Both the position numbers and the translations under genes were made by a program. Under the pieces are notes generated by a model, which did not search any database, had not been told where the DNA came from, and worked only from the letters and a program-made list of their open reading frames with translations. A DNA stretch of 64,000 nt from an uncultured virus (IMG/VR IMGVR_UViG_3300047322_000261) (Duplodnaviria > Heunggongvirae > Uroviricota > Caudoviricetes). Below, piece after piece: positions 9,964-34,275 of the stretch. Every line of letters begins with the position of its first letter. The first letter of the stretch is position 1. The DNA is taken from the IMG/VR virus record IMGVR_UViG_3300047322_000261; one strand, written 5' to 3'.

Positions 9964-12900
9964 TGCCTACAGCCAATCTCGCGGATATTGAGCAGGATAA
10001 CACACCACCGCCCTATCTAGCTGGCCCACAAGACCAGCCACAACAGCAGCCAGCAGACCCAAGTATACCGCCATTACTGGCTAGGCCCGAAACTCCAGCT
10101 AACTCAGCTAGTCTTGATGACGCTACTATTGACCATGACACTCTACAGGCTGACGCTACCAACAACCTAGCTAAGTATAACGCTGGAGACCCTTCGATCA
10201 ACGATCATGACGCAGGAATGTTCAAGGGTATCGCCAAGGCCGCTACCGACTACAAAACTGCGCTCAATAACGAAATAACCGCTGCCGATAACACGCCCGG
10301 ATGGTTACGGGCAGGCAGGGATTTAATTGGTGGGGTTAAGACCTTAGCAGGCAAGGCATCTAATTTCTTAAGCTTGGGTGGCAAGCCGGAAGACTGGGCT
10401 GAGTTTGGCGATGTTCCAAAAAGCACGCAAGACCTAAAAGAAGCAGCTACTGGAGCGGCAGAAATAGCTCAAGGTGTGGTAACTGGCGTTGGCAAGATGC
10501 CAGCGGTAGCCGCTAATCTTGTTGCTGGTCTTAACGAGCTTACGCCCTATCAGGCACTTAGAGAAACTATTCCCGGCCCTTGGCAAGACGAGGCACAAAA
10601 ACAAGCTGCCGAAAGCAGAGCGGTTGGAGATGTATTAGAACACTACGCTAACACAGGAGCTAGTGATATCAGCAGAATCACTGGCGTAAGCCACGATACA
10701 GCCAAGGCAATGATAGGCGAGAACGTAGCCTACATGTTGTTAGGCCCAATGGGAATGGAGGGAACGGCAGAAGGTGTGGCGAACGGTGTTCGTAATGCAA
10801 CTAACGCAGTTGGTAACGTAACTGGTGGATTAAAGTGGGCAGCAGCCAAGGCAGCACCTACGGCGGTAGGACTAGCTAAGGCAGCTACGGTAGACGTAGC
10901 ACTTAGGAAGGTGGGACTAGTTGGAGGAATGAATGAGCTTGTGTCCACACTTGCCGGATTCGGGGGAAGGTCAGGAGCTAAGAACCCAGAGATAGCCAAC
11001 AAGGTAGTTCAATTATTCAGCGACAAGACCCTGCCAGAGATAACGGAAGCTGCCGCACAGCAAGCCACTAAGCCGTTAGGATTAAGTAAGAACCAGTTTT
11101 TCGCAGACGCTCTTAAACAAAAAGCTGGAACACTACAGGAAGCTATAGATGCAGACTTGGCCGACATGGATTCCACTAGCGCAAGGCGAGCTACAGACCT
11201 AGCCTCAGATGGTTCCTATAAGCATCCTTATGAAGACCTAGACAAAGAAGGCCAATCCCTAAGAGATAAAAAACAGCAGGTTCAAGACCTTCAAAATAAA
11301 GCACAGGGCATACTTGCTAGAAACGACTTTCAAAAACTATACGATTCCGCCATTCAGGGATTTGGTAACTTCATGGCTCATACCGCGCAAGGCGCAGCTA
11401 TAGGTGCTGGTTTCGCCGGAGCTAACGCTCCAACAGGAGATACGTCAAACGCTGTAGCTTCAGGACTAGCTATAGGTGGAATACTAGGTGCTGGTGCTGC
11501 TCCGTTTGCTTCATTGTCAGGAACCAGAGCGTTAAGAATTTCCGATGCGGCTAAAGACTTAAAGAATTGGTCAATTAAGAACAACGCTGTAGCTGGCGAC
11601 ATGAGTGACCTTAGTGCCGGACAAAAGCGCACCGCTTACTCCGTAGCTGGCATGGTAAATAAACTAGGTGGTAATAAGGTCTACTTACATCCAGAAGACG
11701 AAATGGTGGCATGGGGTGGTCAGGCCCCTGACTCGCAACCCGGAAGCGGATTCGTTGACTCCCAAGGTAACATACACCTTAACAAAGCCGATTTACCAAG
11801 TGGAGTTGCTGGACACGAATACACTCACTTTACTCAGCAGTTTCAGGGTTTGCTAGGAGAAATGCTAAGCAAGGCTTCTCCAGACAGAATGGCCGACTTT
11901 GAAAAACAGTATCAAGACGCCTTAGCTACCACAGGAAAAACTAGGTTTAACTCTAGGAAAGAACGAGACGCTGAGGTAGGTAGACTTGTATTGCAACACA
12001 CACCTATCGAGTTGTTTTACGGTGGAGAGACTGGTGCTGATGTTCTTGGAAGAATGTGGGATGGTATGATGGGTCAGGGTAAGACAAAGTTTATCAACGG
12101 TTTTAATGCCCCTTATACTCGCGCCGACATTCTGGCTATGAAGCAACGCTTCTATAAAGCTGGCGAGCTAGCCAAGATGACTGACGGTCAAATTCCAAGA
12201 GATGCTAAGCCACCAGAGGTTTCATTCACGGACTTCACTGATGCACAGGCAGAGAAATTTCATAGAGCGGTAGAATTTAACCAACAGCAAGGCATGAGTC
12301 CCGATGCAGCATTTAAGGATGTTGCTGATAACATAGAGTTCATGCCTAAACCTAGGCCCGGTCAAACAAAAGAAGAAGCACTAGACGAAGCTTGGGAACG
12401 TTACTACGCTCAAGTCCAAGAACAAAACGCCAAAAGAGAACCACAAGAACAAGACTTTAACACCAGACCACCTAAGCCTAAATGGTATGACCCTACGTCT
12501 TTTGTTGACGACGCTAGGATGCGTAGTTTGCTACCATCAGAGCAGCGTCCCAAGCTGGAACCCTACGTTCCGAAACCAAAACCATTTGAGAGAACCTATG
12601 GCTGGATGAGTCCAGAAGGTAAGTATATTGAGAACAAATCGGGAAACATCCACGCTAACACTATAGCAAAAGAACTTAACGGGCAAGATAGCTTCCGTCG
12701 GTGGAGGGAGAATGTAATACATAAAGGCGGAGACGAAACTATCAAGAACCACCCATATATAGATGCTATGGAATGGGCGTATCGCAAAGGATGGGAGAAG
12801 GGCTACGTTAGGCTGCTTAACTCAGGCAAGACCCTTTACGCCAATATAGGAAAAGATTTTGTTATTAGCCCAGAAATGAAAGACCACCTTATCAAACGCG

Positions 12901-15900
12901 CCGAAGAAAGTGGTGCTGATAGGGTGATGGTAGATCGTGACTTCAGTAAGACAGAAAAGCTATGGGATAACCCAGACTACGCAGGAAATAAGGCAGGCTC
13001 AGCTTACTTCGGTGAGAGGCCAGAACCAACCCACCGCAGGCTAGCTAGGTTGCTAAACTGGCACAGAGACCAAGACGTTCTAACTCCGCACGTGGGTCAG
13101 CCAGCAAAAAGGGCTACGATTCCACCTGAGTTTCGTGCTGTAGATCGTGATGAATTTCACGGAACAGTCCATGAAACGGTAAAAGCCGCAACAGGCAGGC
13201 TAGCGGATGCGATTACAGGTCGCGGCGTGAATGAAGTGCGAACCTTCACGGAACACCTACGGCGGCAAGGCAAACCAGTTAAGAAGGTGTCAGACATGAC
13301 CCCTGAGGAAATCAGGGCAGAACTAGCTGCTAGGGATGCATGGAACGCCAGAGAGGGCTGGAGAGGTAAGCCTGCTCAAGCACCAGAACAACGAGCAGAA
13401 TCTTACATGCCTAGGAAGCCCGGACAGTCTAAGCAAGACGCAGCACAGGAAGCTTGGGAGCGTTACTATAACGTAGTCCAGCAACAGAATCAAGCGGCTG
13501 AAGCAGGTCAAAAGATGCCTAGCCCCCTAGCAATAACACGAAGACAGAAAAAACTAGAACGAGCTACAGAGGCAGAACGGGTAGCGGCAGAGGCACAGCG
13601 CATAAAAGACCGAGCCGAAGCTGTAGCTAGGGTTAAAGCTAAAGCTAAGGACAGCGGCAAACCTCAACCAGTTTACGGTTGGCTAAAGCCAGACAATAGC
13701 TTCCTAGAGAACAAATCTAGCGACATACATGCCGATACAATATCCAAAGAACTTAATCCAGACTACAAATACGACCAATGGGATCATAAAGACGAACAAG
13801 GTAGATACACTGATGGTGACTATACGTCGATTTACGGTAGCATGCGCGGAGCTTATGAAGCTGGATGGGACAAGGGATACATTAGACTAAGAAACTCATA
13901 CGACACCTTGTATGCCCATCTTCCTGTTAAATATGGGCCGATTCCAGAGAGCAAGGTAAATGTATTAAAGGAACTGGCTCTTGAAAACAACATGAATGAG
14001 ATTATTCATGACAATGGAACCAGTAATTCGTATACCATGTGGTCAAATCCTAACCCGGTTAAAGATACTTCTGATTACATGCCCAGAATTAAATCTCCAG
14101 CTATTCAGGATAAAAAAACTGGTAAGATATACCTAGGAGAAAACCATGCAGTAGCTTACAATGACTATCTTCGGGCAACGCCGGACGACAAAGTAGTATC
14201 ATCTGGCAGGTTTGTTCCTCACTGGGATAACCCTAGAACCAAGGAAGGGTTTATTGACACCGATGGTAACTTTCACGACAGAGCTAATGCTTGGCAAATG
14301 GCTGCTGACGCTGGACAGTTAACACCATCTAGCGTTAGCAGGAAAACTAAGACATTGTTTTCAGAAGACCTAATGCCTAGGCTTACCAAGCGACAGATGG
14401 AAGCACAGGACAAAGCTACTAGAGATTACGACTTTATTCAGGCGCAGAATATGGCTAGGGACGAAGAAAAGAAAATGCCCACCAAGTTGTCTTATGTAAG
14501 GCGCAAAAATAGACTAGAGCGAGCCGATCAAGCAGAAAGAGACGCAGAAAATCAGCGTGCCGAGCAAGCTAGATTAGATGCATTATCTAGGCGGCGGTTT
14601 GGACAAGGCAACGACAGGCCAAGAGAAGTTTATGGCTGGCTAAGTCCAAAAGGTGAGTTCCATAAAAACAAAGGTGGCGATATTCACGCAGATACTATTT
14701 CTAGGCTGCTAGACCCCCAAGGATATGAAGATAGCGAAGGTAGCTACCATGATATGTATGGCGGTATGACACAGGCCTATATGGAAGGATGGAGAAACAA
14801 ATACCTTCGTCTTACTTCATTAGGCCGACAGATGTATGTCCACTATCCGGCGGAATACGGAGACATTCCCAAGTCACAACTAGGAGAGCTAGAGAAAATT
14901 GCAATGGAACACAATATGGATGTTGTGTTACGAGATACAGAAGATGGGCCAGAAAAAGTTTTATGGCAGTCTCCTGAGTTTGGCACGAGGGATGATGGTC
15001 TAACTTCTGAGTATGAGTTCATGCCTAAGGCCAGACAGATGAACGACGAGAACTTCAAAGAGCCGTTCTATGTAGAGAAACACGGTGGGGTTTATGCCGT
15101 TGTTGATCGCCGGAAACCTAGCTCTGTAGGGTTTATCAGTCCTGACTTAAAAGAGGCACAGCACAGGGCATACTGGGCTAACGAAACAGAGAGACCTAAG
15201 ACTAGCGCAAGCGGGTTATGGGATTCTACGTTCGTCGAAGGAGAGGGCGCGGCTGAACGGAAGCAGGTAGCCAAGCAATTAGGAGTCCAAGAAGACAAAC
15301 ATTACTGGGAACAGAAGCCGGAAGCTAGAGCCAAGATTAAAGACTACTACACTAAGCAGGGTGCTGACTTTATGCCAAGACCAACACCGCTACAGGTAGC
15401 CGAGGGTGTTCACCGCGAGCTTAAGAAATCAGCAGAAGAATTTATAGGCGCAAGTCCATACGCTAGGAAGTTTCTGGACAACGACAAAGACGGTATGGGT
15501 AGATACTATCTCATGCATGCTCTGGTAGACTCGGTTAAGGGCAAGCCTCAGGGTATTGATTTACAAGAGATACATAAGTCGTTAGGCATGACACCTACAG
15601 AGGTAGAGGTATTCGCGGATGGGTTTAGACAAACGGTTAACCCTGCCGAGATAGAACACAGGATTAACATAGGATCGCTGCCAGCAGCACCATATCCCTA
15701 TGACATGAATCCTAAGTTTGAAGCTCAGATGCGCGACACGGCAGACCAGACACCAGAAGACACTGCTGGCGAAGAATGGAAATCAGGCAACCCGCCACCC
15801 GGTTGGAATCCAAGGGAAGGTGGCAGCGGTTTCTGGCCTAGGGAGTTTATGCCTAGGATTAGGGCTGCTGCTGTCAGGGACAATGATACCGGAAATGTTT

Positions 15901-18900
15901 TTGAAGGACGTAACCATATTCAAGCCGAGACTGCTTGGCAGGCTGGAGACGGTAAAAATCACGACTACTTCAGGAGACTACCTAACATAGATCAGGGTTT
16001 TGTTACAGACGAAGGAAGGTTCGTTAGCAGGCAAGATGGGGCACCAATAGCTAAGGCTTCTGGACAACTAAAGAACAACCAATGGCGAAGCTTATACGAC
16101 AAGAACCCATCAATGCAGTTAATCTCAGAAGACGTTAACTTCATGCCTAGGATGGGTGTCCCGGTTAACGAAGAAAAATGGAGGGAAATGTTCTCTCGAT
16201 CTAATGCTCATGGATACCCTAAACCTATAGTTTCGGCAGCTATACTAGACCTTAAAGACGGAACCAAGTGGGTTGGTAAAGATCATGTTGAAGCCTACAC
16301 AAGTTGGGGGGCGGGACAAGACCACACTAAGCCATTAAATAACTCAACATTACTAGACGGATTTATTGACACTAACGGTGACTTCCTTAACAGGAAACAG
16401 GCAGGAGTTAGGGTTGGAGAAACCGGACAAATGGGGCCAGAGGCCTCTAGGATTCTAGCTCAAACAGGACTAGACTCACAGACGTTTGAGGGTCTTAGAA
16501 GCTACATGCCTAGGTCTAAAGAAACAGACCTTGCTGAACACGCTGCGAAATTATCAGATGGTAAGATTATCACAGGTTCTAGCCAAGGCGAAGTTTATGG
16601 CAAACTAAGGAACCAAGGCCTAGACCCTGATAGCATAGAAACAGGGTTTGTTGACGGAAGCGGAAAGTTCTTAAACACCGGAGAAGCATACCATCAGGCT
16701 ATAACATCTGGACAGGGTGCTATGTCATTCATGCCTAGGGTTGATAAACAGTGGGAGAAGGAGCGGTGGCTTACCAGAAAGAACATAGCTATGCTAATGG
16801 GCTGGCCTAGGGAAGATGGTCTTAAGAAATTCGCGGAGTTATCACCAAATCAACAAAAGCAGATAGCCGGATATTACGGGCCTAAGCCCGGAACCAGAGA
16901 AGACACATTCTTCATGCCGAAGCCGGACGATAAAAGAGCTATCAAGGAAGCAGCAATCCAATATCCAGATGGAACCATATACGCAGGAACCAATCATGCT
17001 AGCGCAATTATTAACTCAGAAAATAAAGTGGGAGAGTTTAAGGTAGGGTTTGTTACTAACGACAGGAAGTTTTTAGATAGAAAGCAAGCTATGGACAGGG
17101 CTGTAGAGATTGGCCAGATTTCCAAGGCAGCGGCAGACACCGAGTTAAATCGGCAAATTAGAATGGGTATTAGCGAACCAAGCAGGGGTCTTGAGTCATG
17201 GATGTTTAACCTAGACAGAAATTTCATGCCCAAAGCTCCCGCTGCATGGAAAGTAAAAGATTGGGAAGATAACGGTAAACCTAAGTCTCTTATTGTGGCT
17301 CCAGCTACATCAACAATTTACGACACAGGGTTAAACGAACACAGGGATGTTAGGGCTGCTATTAGAGACTCTGGAGTAACCGGAAGCCTAGTTAGGGCTG
17401 TTGTTAATGACCGAGACAACAAATTGAACGTAGAGCCTTATTCTGCATCAGGAGAAGTCTCGGCGTCTGACATGAAAAACCTGAACGATCTAGCTACCGA
17501 GATGGGGCTAGATGGTGCAGTTAACACAGAGTTTAAGAGAGCGGGTGGGCCTTCTAGGATTCAGCAGGCTAGGAGCTATGCCTATATGCCACCTATCCGC
17601 AAGGCAGAAGCTCGCGGTAACTCACGAGAAGTAAGTCAGGAAGAATACGATCACCTAGCAGCCTCAGGTGCTACACAGCTTAACCAGCTTAGGCAAGACA
17701 CCCAGTCAACGGAAGGCATGAAACAGAACTGGAACGACATGCTTAACCAAGTCTACGCAGAGACTAGGAAGCCGTGGGGTGGTGCTACCATTAATCCTGC
17801 TACTGGAAGGGATATCAAACTAACATCAGGTAGGGACGTTGGGCCTTTTGCTATGTCGGTTAAGGATGAAGGTCAGGAGACCATTAGTGTTCCCATTGAT
17901 GCTTCGCAGCGCGAATTTAATGATGCCATGTTAAAGGCTAGGCATGCCTTTCCACAGCTTAACGGTAAAGACCACTATCTAGGGGTGTTCCGCGACGACG
18001 ACAAGGGCACTATAGATATAGACCCTGTGTTAGTGGTAGATACTCCATCGCAGGTTGAAAGGATAGGTGCTTATACTCATGCTTCTGGTGGAGCGTATGA
18101 CTACGCTACTGGTAACGGTTACTTCCCGCCGCACCTAGACTACATGCCTAGAAGTAGAGCTGACCTGAGAAAGTTTCAGGAAGAAATGGCACAGAATTAT
18201 CCAGAAGCTATTAAGCCTACCTTCCAGAAAGACAAAGAAGGTAACTTCAAGGTAGACAAAGACACTGGTGAGTTTGTTCCAGAAGAAAGGGAGTATAACC
18301 TAGACAAAACCCCCTTATACAAACTAGCAACTCAAGGTATTAAAGACCCGCTAGAGAAAGACAAAGCTTATGTCAAGGCCTTAGCTCAAAAGATAGCTAA
18401 CGAATATAAGCAGAATTGGAAAAACGATCCGCTAGCTATGACAGCTAAGGGATGGTATACGGACTTGTTTAAGTTGATTTCAGACAAACTAGGAAAAGAC
18501 AACGCTGAGTTATTCGCTCAGTTACTTTCCACAACAAGTCCCGGTAACTTTGCCTCTAACAACTTTAGGTTCGCGCTAGAGGCTATGAATGGATACCTTA
18601 GTGGGAGATACGATAACATCCTTAAGGCGTTTAAGGAAGCTCACGATGCTTTTGTTAGGGGTGATCTAAAAGACGCTAGCGGTAATCCGATTACCAAGGT
18701 TGGTCAGTTCAATAAATACATAAGAGATAACAACATCTTGGCGTTACAAGCTAGCGGAAAGAAACTCGGAAAATATAGCCTAGGAGCAACGTATGTCCTA
18801 GCCGGACATTTCTGGAACAAGGCAATGGGGAAAAAGGTTACAGCCTTTGTTAAGAACATCAGCGGTGTAGACCTAGATAATCCAACTATTGATACTTGGG

Positions 18901-19262
18901 CAGCTAGAACGGCTCATAGGTTGTCTAACGAGGGCATGACCGATAAGCCTTGGAGAAACCTTCCAATGAACGAATCTGCTATAGGTGACAGAGATTTCGA
19001 CCTAGCGCAAGCCGCCTACAAGGAAGCAGCCAATATGACAGGAGTTAAACCAACAGACTTACAAGCTATAGCTTGGTTTGGCGAGAAACTTCACTATGGA
19101 AAGAGCGGTTGGATCAACTCTGGCCCCGGAGCCGAGCTAGGAGACTTTAGACCATTCCTAAAGGCGGCTACACCTAAAGGAAGCCTAGGGGAACTAGAGA
19201 TACCAAGTGGATTAAAGCTTCCAAGAGCAACACTAAGCAAACCAAAATGGCTAAACCAATAA
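9963..19262 (+). CDS. Giant (3099 aa) internal virion polyvalent-type protein: HEXXH metallopeptidase, 14 MP[RK]-delimited modules, C-terminal HhH-glycosylase-like domain
   Basis: HEYTH at 11814-11828; repeated [FYL]MP[RKP] junctions; internally repeated domains; C-terminal GWY...LLSTTSP...TIDTWAAR...LQAIAW pattern. Confidence 0.75.
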   Translation: MPTANLADIEQDNTPPPYLAGPQDQPQQQPADPSIPPLLARPETPANSASLDDATIDHDTLQADATNNLAKYNAGDPSINDHDAGMFKGIAKAATDYKTALNNEITAADNTPGWLRAGRDLIGGVKTLAGKASNFLSLGGKPEDWAEFGDVPKSTQDLKEAATGAAEIAQGVVTGVGKMPAVAANLVAGLNELTPYQALRETIPGPWQDEAQKQAAESRAVGDVLEHYANTGASDISRITGVSHDTAKAMIGENVAYMLLGPMGMEGTAEGVANGVRNATNAVGNVTGGLKWAAAKAAPTAVGLAKAATVDVALRKVGLVGGMNELVSTLAGFGGRSGAKNPEIANKVVQLFSDKTLPEITEAAAQQATKPLGLSKNQFFADALKQKAGTLQEAIDADLADMDSTSARRATDLASDGSYKHPYEDLDKEGQSLRDKKQQVQDLQNKAQGILARNDFQKLYDSAIQGFGNFMAHTAQGAAIGAGFAGANAPTGDTSNAVASGLAIGGILGAGAAPFASLSGTRALRISDAAKDLKNWSIKNNAVAGDMSDLSAGQKRTAYSVAGMVNKLGGNKVYLHPEDEMVAWGGQAPDSQPGSGFVDSQGNIHLNKADLPSGVAGHEYTHFTQQFQGLLGEMLSKASPDRMADFEKQYQDALATTGKTRFNSRKERDAEVGRLVLQHTPIELFYGGETGADVLGRMWDGMMGQGKTKFINGFNAPYTRADILAMKQRFYKAGELAKMTDGQIPRDAKPPEVSFTDFTDAQAEKFHRAVEFNQQQGMSPDAAFKDVADNIEFMPKPRPGQTKEEALDEAWERYYAQVQEQNAKREPQEQDFNTRPPKPKWYDPTSFVDDARMRSLLPSEQRPKLEPYVPKPKPFERTYGWMSPEGKYIENKSGNIHANTIAKELNGQDSFRRWRENVIHKGGDETIKNHPYIDAMEWAYRKGWEKGYVRLLNSGKTLYANIGKDFVISPEMKDHLIKRAEESGADRVMVDRDFSKTEKLWDNPDYAGNKAGSAYFGERPEPTHRRLARLLNWHRDQDVLTPHVGQPAKRATIPPEFRAVDRDEFHGTVHETVKAATGRLADAITGRGVNEVRTFTEHLRRQGKPVKKVSDMTPEEIRAELAARDAWNAREGWRGKPAQAPEQRAESYMPRKPGQSKQDAAQEAWERYYNVVQQQNQAAEAGQKMPSPLAITRRQKKLERATEAERVAAEAQRIKDRAEAVARVKAKAKDSGKPQPVYGWLKPDNSFLENKSSDIHADTISKELNPDYKYDQWDHKDEQGRYTDGDYTSIYGSMRGAYEAGWDKGYIRLRNSYDTLYAHLPVKYGPIPESKVNVLKELALENNMNEIIHDNGTSNSYTMWSNPNPVKDTSDYMPRIKSPAIQDKKTGKIYLGENHAVAYNDYLRATPDDKVVSSGRFVPHWDNPRTKEGFIDTDGNFHDRANAWQMAADAGQLTPSSVSRKTKTLFSEDLMPRLTKRQMEAQDKATRDYDFIQAQNMARDEEKKMPTKLSYVRRKNRLERADQAERDAENQRAEQARLDALSRRRFGQGNDRPREVYGWLSPKGEFHKNKGGDIHADTISRLLDPQGYEDSEGSYHDMYGGMTQAYMEGWRNKYLRLTSLGRQMYVHYPAEYGDIPKSQLGELEKIAMEHNMDVVLRDTEDGPEKVLWQSPEFGTRDDGLTSEYEFMPKARQMNDENFKEPFYVEKHGGVYAVVDRRKPSSVGFISPDLKEAQHRAYWANETERPKTSASGLWDSTFVEGEGAAERKQVAKQLGVQEDKHYWEQKPEARAKIKDYYTKQGADFMPRPTPLQVAEGVHRELKKSAEEFIGASPYARKFLDNDKDGMGRYYLMHALVDSVKGKPQGIDLQEIHKSLGMTPTEVEVFADGFRQTVNPAEIEHRINIGSLPAAPYPYDMNPKFEAQMRDTADQTPEDTAGEEWKSGNPPPGWNPREGGSGFWPREFMPRIRAAAVRDNDTGNVFEGRNHIQAETAWQAGDGKNHDYFRRLPNIDQGFVTDEGRFVSRQDGAPIAKASGQLKNNQWRSLYDKNPSMQLISEDVNFMPRMGVPVNEEKWREMFSRSNAHGYPKPIVSAAILDLKDGTKWVGKDHVEAYTSWGAGQDHTKPLNNSTLLDGFIDTNGDFLNRKQAGVRVGETGQMGPEASRILAQTGLDSQTFEGLRSYMPRSKETDLAEHAAKLSDGKIITGSSQGEVYGKLRNQGLDPDSIETGFVDGSGKFLNTGEAYHQAITSGQGAMSFMPRVDKQWEKERWLTRKNIAMLMGWPREDGLKKFAELSPNQQKQIAGYYGPKPGTREDTFFMPKPDDKRAIKEAAIQYPDGTIYAGTNHASAIINSENKVGEFKVGFVTNDRKFLDRKQAMDRAVEIGQISKAAADTELNRQIRMGISEPSRGLESWMFNLDRNFMPKAPAAWKVKDWEDNGKPKSLIVAPATSTIYDTGLNEHRDVRAAIRDSGVTGSLVRAVVNDRDNKLNVEPYSASGEVSASDMKNLNDLATEMGLDGAVNTEFKRAGGPSRIQQARSYAYMPPIRKAEARGNSREVSQEEYDHLAASGATQLNQLRQDTQSTEGMKQNWNDMLNQVYAETRKPWGGATINPATGRDIKLTSGRDVGPFAMSVKDEGQETISVPIDASQREFNDAMLKARHAFPQLNGKDHYLGVFRDDDKGTIDIDPVLVVDTPSQVERIGAYTHASGGAYDYATGNGYFPPHLDYMPRSRADLRKFQEEMAQNYPEAIKPTFQKDKEGNFKVDKDTGEFVPEEREYNLDKTPLYKLATQGIKDPLEKDKAYVKALAQKIANEYKQNWKNDPLAMTAKGWYTDLFKLISDKLGKDNAELFAQLLSTTSPGNFASNNFRFALEAMNGYLSGRYDNILKAFKEAHDAFVRGDLKDASGNPITKVGQFNKYIRDNNILALQASGKKLGKYSLGATYVLAGHFWNKAMGKKVTAFVKNISGVDLDNPTIDTWAARTAHRLSNEGMTDKPWRNLPMNESAIGDRDFDLAQAAYKEAANMTGVKPTDLQAIAWFGEKLHYGKSGWINSGPGAELGDFRPFLKAATPKGSLGELEIPSGLKLPRATLSKPKWLNQ

Positions 19263-21553: not shown

Positions 21554-21585
21554 AGAGCGGGGTGCTTCGGCATCCCGCTCTTTTT
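21554..21585 (+). terminator. Rho-independent terminator
   Basis: AGAGCGGGGTGC-TTCG-GCATCCCGCTCT followed by a T-run; cUUCGg loop. Confidence 0.9.
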
Positions 21586-21587
21586 AT

Positions 21588-21615
21588 TTGCACTAATCGA
21601 ATATCCCTGTATATT
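21588..21615 (+). promoter_or_regulatory. Promoter TTGCAC-N16-TATATT preceding the first tRNA-like RNA
   Basis: Same TTG-to--10 geometry as the TTTCCGTTG class but without the TTTCCG prefix. Confidence 0.6.
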
Positions 21616-21621
21616 GTCTTT

Positions 21622-21725
21622 GGCGGAAGTAATTAATCGCGCCGAAAGCCGAGTGGGAAGTTTCGCAGTTTACGCCCAATACGTGCTTAAATGATCGGGG
21701 GTAAAAGTCCCAAGAAACTGCACCA
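21622..21725 (+). ncRNA. tRNA-like RNA 1 ending in ACCA
   Basis: 7-bp GCAGTTT/AAACTGC stem plus A-CCA; T-arm-like GGGG-GTAAAAG-TCCC; followed by ATTTT like the real tRNA; no canonical D or anticodon arm; 5' end uncertain. Confidence 0.55.
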
Positions 21726-21728
21726 ATT

Positions 21729-21762
21729 TTTCCGTTGCGTTACGCTCTACAGCCTGTATATT
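21729..21762 (+). promoter_or_regulatory. Conserved promoter motif, copy 2 (TTTCCGTTG-N19-TATATT)
   Basis: Immediately upstream of tRNA-fMet. Confidence 0.8.
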
Positions 21763-21766
21763 ATAT

Positions 21767-21845
21767 CGTGGGGTGGACAAGTCTGGTTTAAGTCGTCGGT
21801 CTCATAAGCCGAAGATCGCGGGTTCAAATCCCGCCCCCGCAACCA
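21767..21845 (+). tRNA. tRNA-Met(CAT), initiator type, with U31-G39 anticodon-stem variant
   Basis: C1xA72 mismatch, GAC/GTC D-stem, anticodon loop CTCATAA (CAT at 21803-05), GCGGG-TTCAAAT-CCCGC T-arm, encoded CCA. Confidence 0.93.
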
Positions 21846-21852
21846 ATTTTTT

Positions 21853-21943
21853 CGGGGGCTGGCAGGGTAAACCCTGCGAAGCGGTAGAGGCTTGAACGCT
21901 GGCAAGACCAACCAGACGATGTGAAAATCATCACCCCCGTCCA
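21853..21943 (+). ncRNA. tRNA-like RNA 2 ending in TCCA
   Basis: CGGGGG/CCCCCG acceptor-like stem plus T-CCA-ATTTT; GCAGGG-TAAA-CCCTGC hairpin; T-arm-like GATG-TGAAAAT-CATC; no canonical anticodon loop. Confidence 0.6.
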
Positions 21944-21950
21944 ATTTTAC

Positions 21951-22021
21951 AGGCACACGCTAACCGAGAAGCTGTCGGTGAACGGCTGCATGGTTTATAC
22001 TTTAGTGTGTGCCTTTCTTTT
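21951..22021 (+). terminator. Long stem-loop with U-tract (terminator or small structured RNA)
   Basis: AGGCACACGCTAA/TTAGTGTGTGCCT 13-bp stem enclosing GCTGT-CGGTGA-ACGGC, followed by TTCTTTT. Confidence 0.5.
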
Positions 22022-22582: not shown

Positions 22583-22728
22583 AAACACCTTGGGAATTAG
22601 GGGTGCTAATTAAGGTAGCATCCGACATGAAAAAACAATCAATACTGAGTCCGTGGAATCCTGTTAAGGTAAACAAAGACTGGATTCCTGTAGCGGTAAT
22701 TGAATATATTTCCGTTGCCGAAGGCTGA
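22579..22728 (+). CDS. 49-aa hypothetical ORF
   Basis: ATGA overlap with the upstream stop; MKTPWELGVLIK...AEG. Confidence 0.4.
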   Translation: MKTPWELGVLIKVASDMKKQSILSPWNPVKVNKDWIPVAVIEYISVAEG

Positions 22729-23333: not shown

Positions 23334-24080
23334 ACCTAGAAATCCACCCAGTAGCTCTAGCTAAGCTAGGGCTACTTAGCAGGCAGCAGGCTAGAAGGCT
23401 TCTAATGCTAGGCGGATGGTTTAACGCACTAGAAATGGAAGAATTACTTATCGAGGCAGGCTGTATAGACAGCCATGAGTGCTGGACGCCCTACAGGACG
23501 CTATCTAGCTCGCCGTGGTTAGTATACGAGGAAACAACACAATGACGAAGGCAATCTGGAGCGAGCGCATGACAACTAAACAACTAGCACAGCTAGAAGC
23601 TATAGCCACCACCATTAAGACCAGCGAGCTATGTAAACGTGTAACAAACATAGAGAACAACCTGCTGGAGTTAACTAAGCTGGTTAAGATCATAGCATTA
23701 AACCAAACCCGCCGCGAGGCACGACGATACATACCAGAAGGATTTTAATGAAAGTCGGAACCGTATGAGACCAATCCCTAACACCTTAACAATCGGTCAT
23801 CCTCACGTATGGCCTAAGCTAGCCCCTAGGCTGGCGAAATACCTAGAACCTAAACTTGGTAAACCTTATGTTACAACTTCAAGATCGGAACGAGCCACAC
23901 GCAGTCCCTCACACTCTAGTCCTACAGCGGCTAGATGAGTGCCTGTTAAACCTTAAGATTCACCGGAACGACTATCCGGCTGAGTTACTTCCTGTATACT
24001 GGGATGCCTTGAGCTATACCAGAACACTAAGGGAGAGAATGGCAGAAAACTTGGGAGAACCTAGGAGCGGTGGGGTATGA
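23330..24080 (+). CDS. Run of three or four small hypothetical ORFs (about 23330..23545, 23542..23748, 23856..24080)
   Basis: Mostly ATGA-coupled short ORFs; no recognisable domains. Confidence 0.45.
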
Positions 24081-24505
24081 AGATAAAACAATTCAGTGGC
24101 AAGTATCGGTTCCTGTCTAACTTTAAGCCTGTAGAAGTAGAGCTAAATGGGATTCATTATGCGTCTGTGGAACACGGTTATCAAGCACTTAAGGCTACCA
24201 ACGTAGAAGATCATAACATGGTAGCCAGCCAACCAACCGCAGGACTAGCTAAGAAAGCTGGCAGGTCTATTAAGGTAAGACCAGACTGGGACAGCATAAA
24301 ACTTTCCGTGATGGAGAAGCTAGTAAGGTCTAAATTCCGATGGTCTGTTATGGCTGATATGCTATTAGACACTGGAACCGCTGAGTTAATCGAGGGCAAT
24401 AACTGGAATGATACGTATTGGGGTGTATGCCGAGGGGTTGGCGAAAACCACCTTGGAAAGATTCTAATGAAAGTCAGAAGACTTCTATACCTAGGAGAGT
24501 TATGA
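24077..24505 (+). CDS. NADAR (YbiA-like) family protein
   Basis: FLSNF...SVEHGYQA.K...AKKAGR...RPDWD...KF...LLDTG..ELIEGN.WND.YWG...GENHLGKILM. Confidence 0.92.
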   Translation: MKIKQFSGKYRFLSNFKPVEVELNGIHYASVEHGYQALKATNVEDHNMVASQPTAGLAKKAGRSIKVRPDWDSIKLSVMEKLVRSKFRWSVMADMLLDTGTAELIEGNNWNDTYWGVCRGVGENHLGKILMKVRRLLYLGEL

Positions 24506-27286: not shown

Positions 27287-27752
27287 TAGTGAGTGTTGGA
27301 TGTTAATTGTTTAACTGGTTCCCAATCTGGAATACCACACATGCTTTCCTTTTGGGCCAGTAGGTCTTTCAACGCTTCCTGTTCAATGGCTAGGAAGTCG
27401 AAGGCGTCTGCATAATCGCGCTTAGCCTGCTCAAAGGCTAGCTTAGCTTCTGACATAGCCTTGCGTGAGAACCTGATTTCCTCGTATGTGTTATACAACT
27501 CTCTGTCAAGCTGAGCTAGTGTTGTTGGCTTTTCTCTCATTGTCATTGTCCACCTTCCGTTTCCCATTGATCTTCCCATTGAGGAATTGCATCCTCTGTA
27601 TTGTAAAACTTAACGTAGGCCTTGGGTGTCTCCACTGGTAGTTGGCTATGCAGCCAGCGATCTTGAGCGTTACACTCGGCCAGCCTGCGCTGTAGCTTGC
27701 TAATCTCCGCGTTGTTTTCGTCGATCAGTTTTAATAATTGGTCTCTATCCAT
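27286..27752 (-). CDS. Two small coiled-coil hypothetical ORFs (27286..27546, 27543..27752)
   Basis: Translationally coupled ORFs. Confidence 0.5.
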
Positions 27753-28084
27753 GATTTGTAATCTCCGTTGTTGATTTTGTATTTCCGGCTTGGTTTTTCT
27801 AGGTCTAGCCTAGCTATCCAAATGGAAGCTTCCTTACCATCGAGATTAATACGGTGTTCATCATAACATCCTCGTTCAATCCTGCGTATACCTGCTAGTG
27901 TTATGTCATTGACTTCCTGTAGCTCTATCACGATGCTTCCCTTGCCCTTGCGTATCTCTGGACAGAACAAACAGTAAAGATCGTAGCCATTAATGCGATA
28001 GGTTCCTAGCACCTTCTGTTCGCCAAACCTACCGTAGTTAATAAGACCTTCTCGGAGCGTTCCGTAAACCGCTATGTAATTCAT
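27731..28084 (-). CDS. Gamma-glutamylcyclotransferase (GGCT/AIG2-like)
   Basis: YIAVYGTLR.G..N...IE...YD...I..GD; ATG at 28084. Confidence 0.85.
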   Translation of the reverse strand: MNYIAVYGTLREGLINYGRFGEQKVLGTYRINGYDLYCLFCPEIRKGKGSIVIELQEVNDITLAGIRRIERGCYDEHRINLDGKEASIWIARLDLEKPSRKYKINNGDYKSWIETNY

Positions 28085-28383
28085 TTGTATCCCTTTGGTA
28101 TCTGCATTTCTTGAACAGCAGCTATCTGCCACCTGGTCTCCTGTAATTCGTTCATGTAGCTATTGATTTTACTTAGTTGATCTCGGATTTCCGCGCGGCA
28201 ACTGTTATTGAACATTTCAATAGCTTCCTTGGGAGTGGCCGCTCCATACCTGCTACTATAAAACTCAGGCTTAGGCCCGTAAGAAAAAGTAATCTGCCAG
28301 CATAGAGCTTCAAAGGTATTATAGCCACGCTCTTTGCGCCGCTTAATCCATTCATCTACTTCGATCTCATATTTCGTTTTCAT
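28081..28383 (-). CDS. Early paralogue family member
   Basis: CWQITFSYGPKPEF...ATPKEAI...KINSYM. Confidence 0.65.
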   Translation of the reverse strand: MKTKYEIEVDEWIKRRKERGYNTFEALCWQITFSYGPKPEFYSSRYGAATPKEAIEMFNNSCRAEIRDQLSKINSYMNELQETRWQIAAVQEMQIPKGYK

Positions 28384-28975
28384 TTATAATTCGTCCCTTT
28401 TTATCGGTTAGGGTGTTGGCATCCGGCATGGCAACAGATTCAACATCCGTTATAGCTTGCTGGCTGTTCTTAATCCTTTCCAAGAATCTGTTCATTTCCC
28501 TAAGAAACTGCGTTCGTTCTTGCTTGAGAGCATTTAGGACGATCCCCTTGGCTTGCTCTGGTGTAGAATCGCTGTAGTAGTCACGGACAAACACAAATCT
28601 ATTATTCATATCTCTTGTCATTGCCCAGTGATTGCCATGTAGCAACCTTTTCTCGCGATCAGATTCGACCTTTTTGCGCTCAGCTTCAGCACTTACCACC
28701 CATTCTCTGTATTCGCGTTCCTCTCGTTGTTCGCGGGTTTCTGTTCCACCATCAGGCCTAACGATAGAACCGTCTTCGTTGAAGCGCATTATCTCCCTTC
28801 TGGAGCCTATATTTGTAGCCCTGCTACTGCGCCATGTCGTTCCGTCTGGTCGTCTGGTGTAAGTGTCTTCGTATAGATTTCCGTCAATAGGGCTTCGACC
28901 TGTTATTATGATAGGTGGCAGCGTTGTATCGTTTAGGACTTCCTCTACAATGTTATTATTAGTTGGACTTGGCAT
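28367..28975 (-). CDS. Early paralogue family member with long N-terminal extension
   Basis: HWAMT...DSTPEQAK...EMNRFL. Confidence 0.6.
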   Translation of the reverse strand: MPSPTNNNIVEEVLNDTTLPPIIITGRSPIDGNLYEDTYTRRPDGTTWRSSRATNIGSRREIMRFNEDGSIVRPDGGTETREQREEREYREWVVSAEAERKKVESDREKRLLHGNHWAMTRDMNNRFVFVRDYYSDSTPEQAKGIVLNALKQERTQFLREMNRFLERIKNSQQAITDVESVAMPDANTLTDKKGRIINENEI

Positions 28976-29279
28976 TGTGTTCCCTTCTGATGACTTTTAT
29001 TTTGTCTATGTTCCTCATGTGACCTTCAAGGTCTTGAAGATCATCTAGGTAGCGATTGATTCGCTGGCGGGTTTTAATAGCAAAGTCACGAATAGCTAGC
29101 TTAGGCGTTTTGAACAATTCTTCATCATCGAAGAAATATCCATGATAGTATGGCCCTTGTTCCCCTTCGGCAATCCATCCGTCATTCCTGTTGCTGTATC
29201 TACTAACGGTAAGCTCTCTAACTACCGGATTGTCGCCAGTGTCGTAACCAACAATAAATAAATTCACGGTTTTAGTCAT
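28959..29279 (-). CDS. Early paralogue family member
   Basis: GDNPVV...LFKTPKLAIRDFAIKTRQRINRYL; ACGGAGAA RBS. Confidence 0.65.
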   Translation of the reverse strand: MTKTVNLFIVGYDTGDNPVVRELTVSRYSNRNDGWIAEGEQGPYYHGYFFDDEELFKTPKLAIRDFAIKTRQRINRYLDDLQDLEGHMRNIDKIKVIRREHNAKSN

Positions 29280-29448
29280 ATTAGCTTGGTTTCTCCGTTG
29301 TGTTTGTAGGTGGTGCGCTCATTAGCGTAAACGCCAACATCGCGCCTAGGCCTAAAGTCTGCCCATCCACCGAATACATCCTTGACCATAGCGTTCTTGC
29401 GCTTCCAGTCAGCTTTCTTGGATGCGTATACTTTCTTGGGTTGCTTCA

Positions 29449-30006
29449 TTAATAATTCCCTTCTCCATCTGGAAATTCACGGCTAGGTGTCTCTGGCGTT
29501 TGCACCATATCGTCAAGAGATTCGCTTCTATCTGGCTCTGGCACAAGGTTGCTAACCATTGGCATAGGAAAAGGTGTGCTAGTCCATGATATGTTGTCAT
29601 AGGCTCTCGGTGCTACACGAGCAGCAGGTATTGGATAACTGGGGGCGGGTTGCTCCGCTGGACGATTGTGACACACAGGAGCCTCATTAAGAGCATCCAG
29701 AACCATGTTGCAAGCCTCTACGATCTCGTCTGTTACCTTATCTTCTAGCCCTATGCCCTCTAGTATGTCTTTTGCTTTATCTAGGTTCATGCTGTTTCCT
29801 TAATCGTATGCGGGTAGTATCCCAGCCTCGACTGCCTCTGCGTCGGTCATGTAGTCTTCAATCAGAATAGGCTCTGCGTTAGACAGAATCTCGGAACCGG
29901 AATTGGATTCTGAATAGCTCATTAAGATATCCTCTGCCTTTACCTTAGCTTCCTCTTTGGTATCTGCCTCTACTTCTGCCACATTTATCAATACGTTCCA
30001 TTTCAT
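29449..30006 (-). CDS. Two hypothetical ORFs (29449..29790, 29800..30006)
   Basis: AAGGA RBS before each; second has VEADTKEEA motif common in small phage proteins. Confidence 0.55.
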
Positions 30007-30011
30007 GTTTT

Positions 30012-30296
30012 TTATCCTTGGTTGAATGTCTGATTACCGATCTTCAATTCGGTTACTGTGTTAAGGTTCACCATGCGGTAGCCTTGGCTATCCGCAGACC
30101 ACACTGGCAGCAGGCCTTTGGTAGCCGGATTGAACGACATACCTTTGCCTGTCAGATTGCGCTGCATGCCAAGACGCGCACGCATGGTTCGCGGTGTTCC
30201 ATCTTTCTTGATGAAACTGATGGTGAACAAATGGCCTTTCTCGCCTTTGTTTGGCTGCGTGGTTGCGATTAATGCGTTGAGTTTTTCGATGTTCAT
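30012..30296 (-). CDS. SH3/Sm-like small phage protein (WYL_2/DUF2693-like)
   Basis: FTISFIKKDGTPRTMRARLG...VW.....GYRMVNL. Confidence 0.7.
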   Translation of the reverse strand: MNIEKLNALIATTQPNKGEKGHLFTISFIKKDGTPRTMRARLGMQRNLTGKGMSFNPATKGLLPVWSADSQGYRMVNLNTVTELKIGNQTFNQG

Positions 30297-30550
30297 AATT
30301 TCTTAGCTATCCCTTCCAGTTGTTTAATATCCTTAATCACTTCGCTCATGTTGTTAGAGCTTCGGATAATATCATTCTGCCAGTATTGGAGCATCCTTGT
30401 GGAGTCTTTCATGGCACACTTTAATGCCTCTTTTTTGGTGTCAAACCCATAGCTGGCATATCCCCTAGCTCGGATGGTTTTGATATACAGCTTTCCGGCT
30501 TTGTTGCGATCTTGGTAATAGGTTACACGGACTTTTTTCGGGTTTCTCAT
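30293..30550 (-). CDS. Early paralogue family member (divergent)
   Basis: GFDTKKEALK...QNDII. Confidence 0.55.
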   Translation of the reverse strand: MRNPKKVRVTYYQDRNKAGKLYIKTIRARGYASYGFDTKKEALKCAMKDSTRMLQYWQNDIIRSSNNMSEVIKDIKQLEGIAKKL

Positions 30551-32369
30551 TTTGCCTCTCTGTTAACTGTGTTGTATTTCCTAGCCTTGTTGCGCTTAGC
30601 GTTAGCTCGACCGTCTATGAACGGCACACCATCCACAAACGGTTCTAGGCCGCTCTGTGCGCTATCCAGCACTAGCTTAGCCTGCCACACAGGAACGTCC
30701 AGAACGTCAGCCATAGCCTGTAGCGTTGAGTTTCGTGTTATCATAACCCCGTTGTGATTTCTTTGATTTCTTGGAGTTTATTCTCGGCTACCACCGCTCG
30801 GTGCATCCAGTATATACGAGAGGCATCTAGCTTCCGCATTGCTTCCTGTCGAATCTGCTCATCTTCGTATGTTTTGTCTTGTTTCATTTTGCTAGCTCGG
30901 TTAATCCAGTATATACGAGAGGCATCTAGCTCCAGTGAGTATGTTGTGTTTTTTTTCATTTTGCTCCTATTAGGATTTGTTTCTCTGACTGTCGTTGCTG
31001 TCTTTCGATTTCTTTGTTGTGGCGATACATCATGATTTCCTCGATGACTACTTCCGGTTTGAGGCTAACCACCGCTCGCCAGAACGTGATGTAGTTAATG
31101 TCTGGAATGACCTTTCTGAGCGTCTGGAAGGCTCCCTGTTTCGTTTCGTTGTAGTCAAGCCATAGCTTGTAGTCCAACGGTGCATTGGAAAGCCTAGAGG
31201 CTTCCTGATAGGCTTCGTAGCCCTTCCTTGCGTTCATGTAAGTTTTCCAGAACATTACCAAAGCCGCCATTTCGATCTTGTTAAGCTGTAGTCGCTTCAT
31301 CGTGTTCTCCGTGTGATCTGTGAGCGGTTCCAGTTACCTATGCCACCAGTTGAGTTGTTAAGCTGGTCTACCATTGCCGAAGCGGCACACTCATGCCAGA
31401 AGCTATGATACTTTACTCCGGTCTTAGTGAAGACCGTATAGACATAAGAACCAGTGTTGGTGATTCGCTTTTTTTCATACCATGCCCTAGGCGCACGCTC
31501 GATCTCTACCGACTTAATTACTGCGCCAGCTTCGTTCTTGCGTGGCACAAGATTAATTGTCAGATTGATTGTAAGTCTTTTTGTCATTTACTTTCCTTGG
31601 TTGAACGCTACAACCCTAGCCCTAGCTGTGGCTGACGTTGTGTTTTCTCTGTCGAGTTTATTCATGGTTGCACCGAATGTTGACCACTTGTAAGAACGGC
31701 TTACTCGGCACGTTCCACGCTGCATCCAGTTAGCCTTGCAGGTCGAAACCTTGTCACGGCCCGCTGTTCCGCTGCCTTTTCGCTGGTGGCGAGCTTTCTT
31801 GGCTCCACGAATACCGCACCCTTTGGTTGGGAATGATGGTTTGGTTGTTTTCATTGTTTATCTGTCTCCTACGTTAGCTGGCATGTTGTCACACATACCA
31901 GAGTTAATTACCAATTTGGTTATCTGTGTTCGCAAGTTATTAAGCTTGGCTTTCATAACTCTATCAACAAGGTTCTTGGCTCTGCGATAGGTTGGGACTT
32001 CCGCATAGAAGCCAGTGTTTTTGTTATACACCGTAAAGCCATGCTCAAAATCGTCTTCGTAGCCGATAATCTCATGCCCACGGTAAATTACTGCCTCATA
32101 CATTAGTCGCACTCCCCTTCCCGTTTCAGGAACGCTCTCTCCGTTCCAGTATTAACCGCATCCTGCCATGTTTGCTTGCGAGCATAGCTGCCACGCATCT
32201 GTGAGTTTTTCCAGTTTTGCCAGCGAGCGCGACGACGCTTCCAGACCCTCTGCGTTGGAGTCAGGTTGGCGTCTGTGGCGTTTTTATTGGTGAAGCCTAC
32301 TGGGAGAGCCAGCGGCAACTCCAAGAACGATCTGTGGCCTTTTAGAGTGATTGTTGGTTTGAATTTCAT
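30547..32369 (-). CDS. Run of about seven small hypothetical early ORFs (30547..30744, 30741..30959, 30956..31300, 31297..31587, 31588..31854, 31858..~32103, 32103..32369)
   Basis: Tightly coupled ORFs, many basic; no recognisable domains. Confidence 0.55.
30805..30931. repeat. 28-bp perfect direct repeat (period 99 bp) inside ORF 30741..30959
   Basis: ATCCAGTATATACGAGAGGCATCTAGCT at 30805 and 30904; encodes LDASRIYW twice. Confidence 0.9.
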
Positions 32370-32370
32370 A

Positions 32371-32970
32371 TTATTCCCTGTTGTTGACTGAGATTGTCCA
32401 AGCTGCCTCAACGATTGTCCGGCTACCCATTGGGTGAGCCTCAACGTCTACGACCTTGCCATTAATCACGGCGAAAGCGTGTTTCCGACCTTCGACATAG
32501 AAGCGGCCAATCGGATGTTTGGCTAAGAACCGCGCCAGCGTCGTTTCCTGTCGCGTTACCTTCGTCAGTTTGTATCCGGCAACACCGTCAGCCCAAGCTA
32601 GCGAGAAAGACCCATTGTCGCGCCTTCCAGCGAGCTTAATAGCCAATCTAGCGGTGAAGAACGGAACCTGAGCAACGTTTGAAAACGCATGAACGGTGCA
32701 GCAGGCGCGATCTGCGACCTTGGTGGTATTACGGTCTGAATGAATCACCGCGACCACTGGCTTGATTTTGGGAGCGCGAAATAGTTTCGCCTTGCGTCCA
32801 GCCGACAGCTTGACGCGAACCAGCGTGTTTTCCTTCGTGGTGGGATTCGGAATGAACCTGACACCAGAGGATTTCTTAGATGCGGGGTTCCAAGTCCAAT
32901 GAGAAGGTTTTACCTTACGGATATTCCCAAGGGACTTCCAGTTGATTCTCGCGAATGAGGCTTTTTCCAT
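32371..32970 (-). CDS. Papain-like (Cys-His-Asp) fold phage protein with basic N-terminus
   Basis: CCTVHAFS...GRFYV...HAFAVINGKVVD; paralogue of 20664..21179; start uncertain. Confidence 0.55.
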   Translation of the reverse strand: MEKASFARINWKSLGNIRKVKPSHWTWNPASKKSSGVRFIPNPTTKENTLVRVKLSAGRKAKLFRAPKIKPVVAVIHSDRNTTKVADRACCTVHAFSNVAQVPFFTARLAIKLAGRRDNGSFSLAWADGVAGYKLTKVTRQETTLARFLAKHPIGRFYVEGRKHAFAVINGKVVDVEAHPMGSRTIVEAAWTISVNNRE

Positions 32971-33028
32971 CACCTGTAACTTAGACGGTATACGACGATA
33001 AGCAATGATTTTGTGCAATTCATAAAAC

Positions 33029-33063
33029 TGACCAAGGGGTAAGGAATTTCCCTACCCCTGTCA
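33029..33063 (-). terminator. Stem-loop after the GATase gene
   Basis: Minus strand TGAC-AGGGGTAGGG-AAATT-CCTTACCCCT-TG-GTCA-GTTTT; G-U pairing favours the minus strand. Confidence 0.6.
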
Positions 33064-33077
33064 CCTTTTATACGCAT

Positions 33078-34265: not shown

Positions 34266-34275
34266 GTTTTTCTTT

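Follow-up and report, generated by a model that had tools for sequence, protein, structure and literature searches.

A small tRNA locus separates a 107-aa ORF from a calcineurin-like phosphoesterase gene in the phage window studied here (by "the window" we mean the whole 64,000-nt stretch of DNA analyzed, IMG/VR record IMGVR_UViG_3300047322_000261). The locus carries one real tRNA gene, tRNA-Met(CAU), and two other CCA-ended sequences, RNA1 upstream of it and RNA2 downstream, laid out as follows:

Ends at 21535: 107-aa ORF, upstream of the tRNA locus
21554-21581: strong terminator (terminator/promoter scan)
21586-21730, + strand: module 1, promoter-like TTTGCA-17-TATATT (21587-21615) plus RNA1, CCA-ended (promoter scan, alignment A2)
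21735-21762, + strand: putative promoter P2 of the tRNA-Met/RNA2 unit, TTGCGT-16 nt-TATATT (the latter at 21757-62) with TTTCC ahead (reading of the sequence)
21767-21845, + strand: tRNA-Met(CAU), initiator-like (C1/A72 mismatch), CCA encoded (ARAGORN; Rfam RF00005, 57.9 bits; alignment mismatch marks)
21846-21852, + strand: 7-nt spacer ATTTTTT between the tRNA CCA and RNA2 (reading of the sequence)
21853-21943, + strand: RNA2, a CCA-ended, tRNA-shaped RNA of 91 nt (sequence, fold, descriptor, pair probabilities)
21951-22021, + strand: long hairpin (21951-22014) and U-rich run, directly 5' of the phosphoesterase start codon
From 22022 (start codon): calcineurin-like phosphoesterase gene

The window also encodes a terminase, a primase-helicase, endonuclease VII and an ORF of 3099 aa (9963-19262, + strand), and every gene from 1 to 24.7 kb lies on the + strand. 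The only family matches of the 3099-aa ORF were to DUF7178/phrog_3842 near its C-terminus and to phrog_839 in its middle; it may encode a giant virion protein or ejection protein. The contig behind the window measures 77,891 bp; no close relative of it was found in GenBank phages or IMG/VR, and sequencing runs X1-X8 point to a soil or rhizosphere origin, with no RNA run among those listed. A block on the - strand (27734-36107) carries GGACT-like, glutamine amidotransferase, ATP-grasp and amidoligase genes, and near this ligase-type block (37043-38281, - strand, and 24077-24502, + strand) are a dATP/dGTP diphosphohydrolase N-domain, a methyltransferase, a DUF4406 and a NADAR gene; taken together, the block and its neighbors suggest that nucleotides or DNA are modified. 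A scan of 70 ORFs in the window gave no match to a tRNA-related Pfam family, and no plausible ORF runs across RNA2.

The tRNA-Met/RNA2 unit is preceded by P2, which a simple sigma-70 scan did not list and which includes CCTGTATATT at 21753-62; no second promoter was found between tRNA-Met and RNA2. The TTCCGTTGC motif also stands ahead of -10-like boxes at 22710 (+), 36865 (-) and 62708 (-) of the window, and twice in the related metagenome contig L040. An element of the form TTTCCGTTGC lies 16-19 nt before a TATATT/TAAGTT-like box at intergenic sites in both phages (window 21730 and 22710 on the + strand, 36865 and 62708 on the - strand; L040 4886 and 5128), and is probably the phage group's own promoter consensus. 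From the end of the -10-like box to the first base of tRNA-Met there are 4 nt in both phages (window 21757-21767; L040 5157-5165), so that the tRNA may be transcribed with almost no 5' leader. On the minus strand, the promoter scan listed a weak promoter-like site at 22028-21999. At the other end of the unit, the long hairpin and U-run are exceptionally stable (-30.2 kcal/mol, z -4.58, 0/200 shuffles as good). No Shine-Dalgarno motif is visible there ahead of the phosphoesterase start, and L040 has a hairpin and T-run at the equivalent place (5262-5310), its form kept and its sequence different. This hairpin could be the terminator of the tRNA unit or an element of translational control.

The octamer CCAATTTT has only three copies in the 64-kb window (21723-30, 21843-50 and 21941-48), all within 226 nt, and these end RNA1, tRNA-Met and RNA2, respectively. 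RNA1 has its CCA at 21723-25. Alignment A2 sets RNA1 with its promoter against the promoter and tRNA-Met module, the parts in common being CCTGTATATT, the T-arm region and the CCAATTTT end. RNA1 resembles the L040 tRNA-Met (z 4.15, 3/1000 shuffles as good), with which it has an ACG/CGT anticodon stem in common; its likeness to the window's own tRNA-Met is weak (z 2.19, p 0.054) and was not significant by nhmmer across the whole window (E 5.7). The remnant of the anticodon stem in RNA1 is thus closer to the L040 tRNA-Met than to the one beside it. The acceptor pairing of RNA1 is lost and its fold is at chance level (z -0.69). With moderate confidence, we read module 1 from these alignments as an eroded duplicate of the promoter and tRNA-Met module; if that is correct, this is a locus that duplicates tRNA genes and lets them erode.

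RNA2 is a different matter. The initial annotation had described a 91-nt CCA-ended RNA that follows a tRNA-fMet gene after 7 nt, and these statements held: the length, the CCA end and the distance from tRNA-Met(CAU) are as it described them, and every sequence string it named is present where it had been placed. The parts of RNA2 are as follows:

21853-21858, + strand: 5' strand of the end (acceptor-like) stem, CGGGGG, pairing with CCCCCG at 21934-39 (pair probabilities 0.54-0.98)
21862-21877, + strand: first hairpin, in D-arm position, GCAGGG-TAAA-CCCTGC, 6 bp and a tetraloop (pair probabilities 0.99-1.0)
21879-21893, + strand: AAGC-GGTAGAG-GCTT, 4-bp stem and 7-nt loop, in anticodon-arm or D-arm place depending on the reading (pair probability about 0.25)
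21899-21915, + strand: weak third hairpin, CTGG-(9 nt)-CCAG (pair probability 0.27)
21900-21910, + strand: TGG-CAAGA-CCA, inner 3-bp form of the third hairpin (pair probability 0.01)
21918-21932, + strand: T-arm-like hairpin GATG-TGAAAAT-CATC, 4 bp and 7 nt (pair probability about 0.48; used in the descriptor)
21934-21943, + strand: 3' strand of the end stem, CCCCCG (21934-39), T/U at the discriminator place (21940) and CCA (21941-43), followed by ATTTT

The three main helices have no mismatch (end stem 6/6, first hairpin 6/6, T hairpin 4/4). The first hairpin, claimed earlier as 6 bp with a 4-nt loop, pairs almost with certainty, and it has no second copy in the window. The acceptor/T stack consists of 6 Watson-Crick pairs, a C/A mismatch and the 4-bp T stem, that is, 10 pairs and not the 12 (7/5) of a standard tRNA. 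When standard tRNA numbering is laid on RNA2, the positions that we take to be equivalent to U8, G53, U54, R57, A58 and C61 are kept, together with the N73-CCA end, and those that we take to be G18G19, U33, U55 (Psi55) and C56 are missing. The earlier statement that there is no canonical anticodon loop was also borne out, since the sole 7-nt loop carried by a stem reads GGUAGAG, with G at the place of U33. The two hairpins that had been proposed for the middle region fared less well: their strings are there, but the first pairs at about 0.25 and the second at 0.01, and the middle 40 nt on their own fold at chance level (z -0.53, 53/200). In the ensemble, a compound hairpin that competes with the two middle hairpins reaches 0.65, and a five-helix cloverleaf of RNA2 lies only 0.6 kcal/mol above the optimum.

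As a whole, RNA2 folds to -34.1 kcal/mol (z -2.33, 4/200 shuffles as good), against z -2.16 for the true tRNA-Met. Its reverse strand does at least as well (z -3.10, 1/200), so that the fold statistic does not select the strand; we place the gene on the + strand by its CCA end, by the neighboring promoter and tRNA, and by the direction in which the genes run. A reading from the reverse strand, in which the loop would be CUCUACC with U33 and the triplet CUA, was ruled out by the wrong order of the arms and the absent CCA end. The shape of the ends is rare in the window: a descriptor composed after the RNA2 site had been seen (6 Watson-Crick end pairs, any nucleotide and CCA; a hairpin of 4 bp and 7 nt that ends 0-1 nt ahead of the 3' strand; 70-95 nt in all) matched RNA2 alone on both strands, with a mean of 0.135 matches in 200 Markov-simulated windows (27/200 with one).

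The tRNA detectors do not recognize RNA2. At the gathering score of Rfam and the default setting of ARAGORN, tRNA-Met alone was seen, and ARAGORN did not call RNA2 at -ps95 or -ps90 either. When Rfam was searched at E<=10 with 601 nt and with 101 nt, RNA2 had no match to tRNA (RF00005), tRNA-Sec (RF01852) or tmRNA, and indeed matched no Rfam family; this Infernal-type check, which had been proposed with the initial annotation, sets RNA2 apart from canonical tRNAs. ARAGORN found no tmRNA at the locus, and its output with introns, in mitochondrial mode and in tmRNA mode was not credible. Under relaxed settings, ARAGORN drew RNA2 as a 91-nt tRNA-Leu(tag) with anticodon UAG and a long variable region, and, when run with -i, made of the same sequence another tRNA, Ser-tga, whose intron is 13 nt long. 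RNA2 is first called at -ps85, where the window yields 12 calls, 10 of them at otherwise unsupported places; at -ps80 there were 40 calls in the window, where 30 simulated windows averaged 28.6. By this control, the Leu-UAG call is at noise level. Of the features of tRNA-Sec, only that of the D stem (6 bp, 4-nt loop) was found, with neither a UCA anticodon nor a 13-bp stack. It is therefore well supported that RNA2 is linked to a tRNA and tRNA-shaped at its ends, and that it is not a decoder.

RNA2 is not derived from its neighbors in any way that we could recognize by comparison: it had no significant likeness to RNA1 or to the window's tRNA-Met (z 0.22), reached z 1.63 with the L040 tRNA-Met (82/1000 shuffles as good, p ~0.08), and was not matched at E<=100 by an nhmmer profile of the two tRNA-Met genes. 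RNA2 as a duplicate of tRNA-Met with an inserted hairpin (AAGC..GCTT serving as the D arm) was tried and dropped, the alignment being suggestive and not significant (p ~0.08).

RNA2 is also an orphan, for which no route that we searched gave a homologue. Against GenBank phages, blastn of 501 nt and of 7.5 kb matched only at tRNA-Met and the phosphoesterase gene, and 105 nt (E<=10) gave six matches of 19-22 nt at E=4 and no homologue. The best short match is to an intergenic repeat of Serratia phage Kashira (L076) that resembles a -35 region and has no tRNA: GGTAGAGGCTTGAA, an exact match to RNA2 21883-21896, occurs twice in one intergenic region there (250-320), each time -35-box-like in place, and the wider match (21/22, E=4) is taken as chance. 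Among IMG/VR viral contigs, an exact 17-mer of the first hairpin had 12 matches, all of them unrelated hairpins, and an exact 26-mer of the 3' part had none. Patterns that fixed the loops only gave 29 matches in IMG/VR and 3 in species-representative genomes, with the three main helices all paired in 0/32; the best pairings (first hairpin 5/6, T stem 3/4, end stem 5/6) were each in different loci. A covariance model, R1, made from the single RNA2 sequence, found RNA2 itself and a 13.6-bit partial match in L041 over 210,729 bases (the window and 31 loci), and had 0 matches over 3 whole viral records (L040 and L041 not among them). RNA2-like DNA was absent from 25 viral loci with phosphoesterase relatives. 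Three neighboring proteins and alignment A1 brought no relative from viral contigs, genome contigs or GenBank phages (tblastn), and run X2 contained identical pieces, none of them across RNA2.

What relatives there are show that RNA2 is an accessory element. A 171-aa protein encoded two genes upstream of the locus has 11 relatives at 58-66% identity, and among these, usable synteny came from L040 only (L038 and L039 end before the site). In L040, the 107-aa ORF is followed by the same promoter motif, tRNA-Met, about 65 nt with the hairpin and T-run, and the phosphoesterase gene. RNA2 is absent behind this tRNA-Met, and at the place of RNA1 there is other sequence with a small ORF. The tRNA-Met of L040 (5165-5243) has no encoded CCA, its discriminator being followed by TAA, whereas that of the window encodes CCA. 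Near-identical relatives are represented by two Logan contigs, from runs X3 and X4. The X3 contig (340 nt) matches 21729-21850 with 2 differences and then joins a 32-nt match starting at 22034; by arithmetic, up to ~167 other letters may lie between the two matches, and RNA2 is not alignable there. The X4 contig (151 nt) matches 21727-21837 with 2 differences, and in it 21585 is joined to 21727 by GTG alone, so that module 1 (141 nt) is missing from this relative. Taken together, these contigs and L040 indicate that both of the CCA-ended RNAs beside the tRNA come and go among close relatives, while the tRNA stays, and that RNA2 (missing from L040, not alignable in X3) is dispensable.

How can such an RNA be explained? 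Expression, processing and any activity of RNA2 we infer only from its sequence and surroundings, and we tentatively favor, at a probability somewhat short of even, that it is expressed and processed like a tRNA as a non-decoding mimic of the tRNA "top half," the product of a strain-specific accessory gene. RNA2 would share a transcript, begun at the phage promoter P2, with the initiator-like tRNA-Met and would then be excised in a tRNA-like manner, with RNase P probably making the 5' cut (at a site with U at -1 and the end stem stacked on the T hairpin) and its 3' end probably being trimmed to the encoded CCA within the A/U-rich trailer. Cleavage by RNase P at a U(-1) site and trimming in an A/U-rich trailer after CCA are both familiar from E. 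coli tRNA operons. The predicted product would have an intact top half, namely the 6-bp G/C end stem with U73-CCA and the T hairpin with G53, U54, R57, A58 and C61, and a core that could not serve as an adaptor: at the place of the D arm it would have the 6-bp/tetraloop hairpin without G18G19, it would be missing the equivalents of U33 and of Psi55/C56, and its stack would comprise 10 pairs and a C/A mismatch. Any activity would then be exerted via the top half, perhaps as a substrate of tRNA-end-binding enzymes or in competition for them. Alternatively, RNA2 may serve as processing "punctuation," freeing the 3' end of tRNA-Met and parting the tRNA from the downstream hairpin and mRNA.

The non-decoding mimic is favored by the clean helices beside a decayed copy, by an encoded CCA in the trailer context of a real tRNA, and by the tightness of the phage genome. 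Also on its side are the single descriptor match, the start 7 nt past a true tRNA on the same strand, the three CCAATTTT copies that end the three modules, the phage promoter motif ahead of the tRNA with none ahead of RNA2 itself, the stable hairpin and U-run behind it, a fold z like that of the true tRNA, and the lack of a plausible ORF across it. Against it stand the lack of a homologue in our searches, its dispensability in relatives, the chance-level fold of the middle, a reverse strand that folds at least as well, the erosion at the same locus, and the 70 ORFs among which no tRNA-related Pfam family turned up. In addition, the elbow nucleotides usually contacted by RNase P and the CCA enzyme are G18G19 with Psi55/C56, and their loss is among the points that favor a remnant. 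A more ambitious version, in which RNA2 is a purpose-built top-half mimic that is matured, CCA-ended, perhaps aminoacylated and never used by the ribosome, seems to us unlikely. Two uses are conceivable for such an RNA: it might soak up a host factor or defense nuclease that recognizes tRNA ends, or it might be a private aminoacyl carrier for the phage amidoligase, ATP-grasp, glutamine amidotransferase and GGACT proteins encoded at 27.7-36.1 kb.

That RNA2 is instead a functionless pseudo-tRNA remnant, a drifting tRNA gene or copy behind tRNA-Met that is carried because it is young and short, is the main rival reading and a real, if doubtful, possibility, and its dispensability in relatives leaves room for it. 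L040 lacks RNA2 and the X3 relative did not show it at that place; module 1 is eroded, and gone from the X4 relative, which puts duplication, decay and loss at work within these 400 nt, a turnover of tRNA modules. A remnant would also explain a sequence that scores below every tRNA model, that ARAGORN calls only at the noise level of -ps85, and whose middle helices are at chance. The helices themselves are harder to reconcile with drift. The acceptor pairing of decayed RNA1 is gone and its fold is no better than chance, whereas the three main helices of RNA2 are free of mismatches; a perfect 6-bp/tetraloop hairpin is not the expected product of ordinary erosion of a D arm; and no parent can be named, either by pairwise comparison with the two tRNA-Met genes (z 0.22 in the window, z 1.63 in L040) or by nhmmer (no match). 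The initial annotation had argued for a remodelled tRNA or mimic rather than simple decay from the intactness of the stems, and this contention came through in part: the contrast with eroded RNA1 upholds it, but the absence from L040 and the failure to align in the X3 contig weaken it.

It is quite improbable that RNA2 is an irregular but working tRNA of class-II type that reads CUA (UAG) and is charged with leucine, or with serine via its long extra region and U73, the route put forward for allo-tRNAs. The relaxed ARAGORN drawing, a tRNA-Leu(tag) of 91 nt whose variable region is long, is of this kind, CTA is the commonest leucine codon of the phage (254/804, 31.6%, in 24 long ORFs), and Mukai et al. 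(PMC5389517) report allo-tRNAs from soil in which a long D stem capped by a tetraloop goes with a long V arm, G73/U73 and anticodons of Leu type, UAG among them. The call itself is noise, redrawn with -i as Ser-tga with a 13-nt intron, and the supposed anticodon loop is GGUAGAG (G32, G33) on a stem of 4 pairs and a G/G. Only 10 Watson-Crick pairs, with one mismatch, make up the acceptor/T stack, not 12, and there is no Rfam tRNA match. Bacterial tRNA-Leu has A73 as its discriminator, and RNA2 has U. The gene is, moreover, missing in L040, although CTA is the top leucine codon there as well (31/124, 25%). We give still less probability, indeed very little, to there being no RNA gene at all, the helices being chance or DNA-level features (an insertion or recombination leftover at a tRNA 3' end, or part of a leader or terminator) or the reverse strand being the functional one. 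The RNA2 unit is flanked by the 8-nt direct repeat CCAATTTT (21843-50 and 21941-48), the X3 match stops exactly at 21850, and the reverse strand has z -3.10 and the weak promoter-like site at 22028-21999. Yet duplication of a tRNA tail alone would not give both a CGGGGG that pairs with the tail, set exactly 7 nt past the tRNA, and, a single nucleotide ahead of the 3' strand, a hairpin of T type; an RNA from the reverse strand would have neither a CCA end nor a tRNA-like order of arms; and all genes from 1 to 24.7 kb are on the + strand.

The usual readings of phage tRNA loci are that they supplement codon usage and, more recently, that they replace tRNAs cut by host defenses. Several known systems can be set beside RNA2. 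With tRNA-Sec (RF01852), RNA2 shares a 6-bp D stem with a 4-nt loop, a long extra region and a length of ~90 nt, but it has neither an RF01852 match nor a UCA anticodon, and its acceptor/T stack has 10-11 layers, not 13. The staphylococcal cell-wall tRNA-Gly species are non-proteinogenic tRNAs, whose amino acids go to purposes outside translation. As in RNA2, their elbow nucleotides (G18G19, T-Psi-C) are replaced and the acceptor end is kept; in other respects, however, they form ordinary cloverleaves, anticodon loop included, and tRNA models detect them, which is not so for RNA2. The genes of the species 1 and 2 RNAs of T4 (rnaC/rnaD) lie among the tRNA genes of the phage, and tRNA-processing enzymes excise these stable small RNAs. 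They resemble RNA2, beside which we set them by description alone, in being non-tRNA RNAs that share a transcript with phage tRNAs and that RNase P presumably releases, but they are longer and come from T4-like phages.

The allo-tRNAs found in soil metagenomes, where irregular tRNAs occur in polycistrons, are the nearest of the described systems (Mukai et al., 2017, NAR, PMC5389517). In that paper, five-stem junctions, inactive members and possible regulatory instead of translational roles are also described, and allo-tRNAs are defined by a 12-bp acceptor branch (8/4 or 9/3), G73/U73, and a long D stem with a tetraloop. By that description, RNA2 is like them in its long D stem and tetraloop (GCAGGG-TAAA-CCCTGC), its discriminator U (21940), the long region at the place of the variable arm, its soil/rhizosphere origin and its position in a polycistron with odd tRNA-like sequences. 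It differs from the allo-tRNAs described there in having no 12-bp branch (6 Watson-Crick pairs, a C/A and 4 pairs; layers 8/9 worked out by hand as C/A, U/C and G/U), in the lack of U33, and in a T loop that reads UGAAAAU vs. the TTCGA type of the allo-tRNA catalogue rows compared (PMC5389517). Where allo-tRNAs have a long paired V arm and an anticodon stem of 5-6 bp with a normal loop, RNA2 has 23-24 nt whose pairing is at chance level and a stem of 4 bp. Four of five RNA2 motifs were absent from the sequence table of the paper (PMC5389517), and the fifth, the 3' tail, occurred once, in an otherwise unlike 9/3 sequence. With the 12-bp branch absent, the T loop different and the motifs unmatched, RNA2 is not classed as an allo-tRNA.

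RNA2 is a single sequence without relatives, a lead rather than a discovery, and nothing like it is catalogued in the databases searched. Low-scoring, pseudo- or irregular tRNA genes do occur in phage tRNA clusters, and RNA2 shares with them its place in a phage tRNA locus, an acceptor/T top half on an abnormal core, and gain and loss between close relatives; it differs from them in that there is one real tRNA only, no parent can be named, and the helices are cleaner than is usual in a pseudogene. A tRNA top half without a decoding core, next to an eroding tRNA copy, makes this locus a compact case in which to ask how tRNA genes are converted and whether phages use such mimics. Among the systems compared here, RNA2 fits the irregular or pseudo tRNA-like genes of phage tRNA loci, as a clean and orphan variant of that kind.
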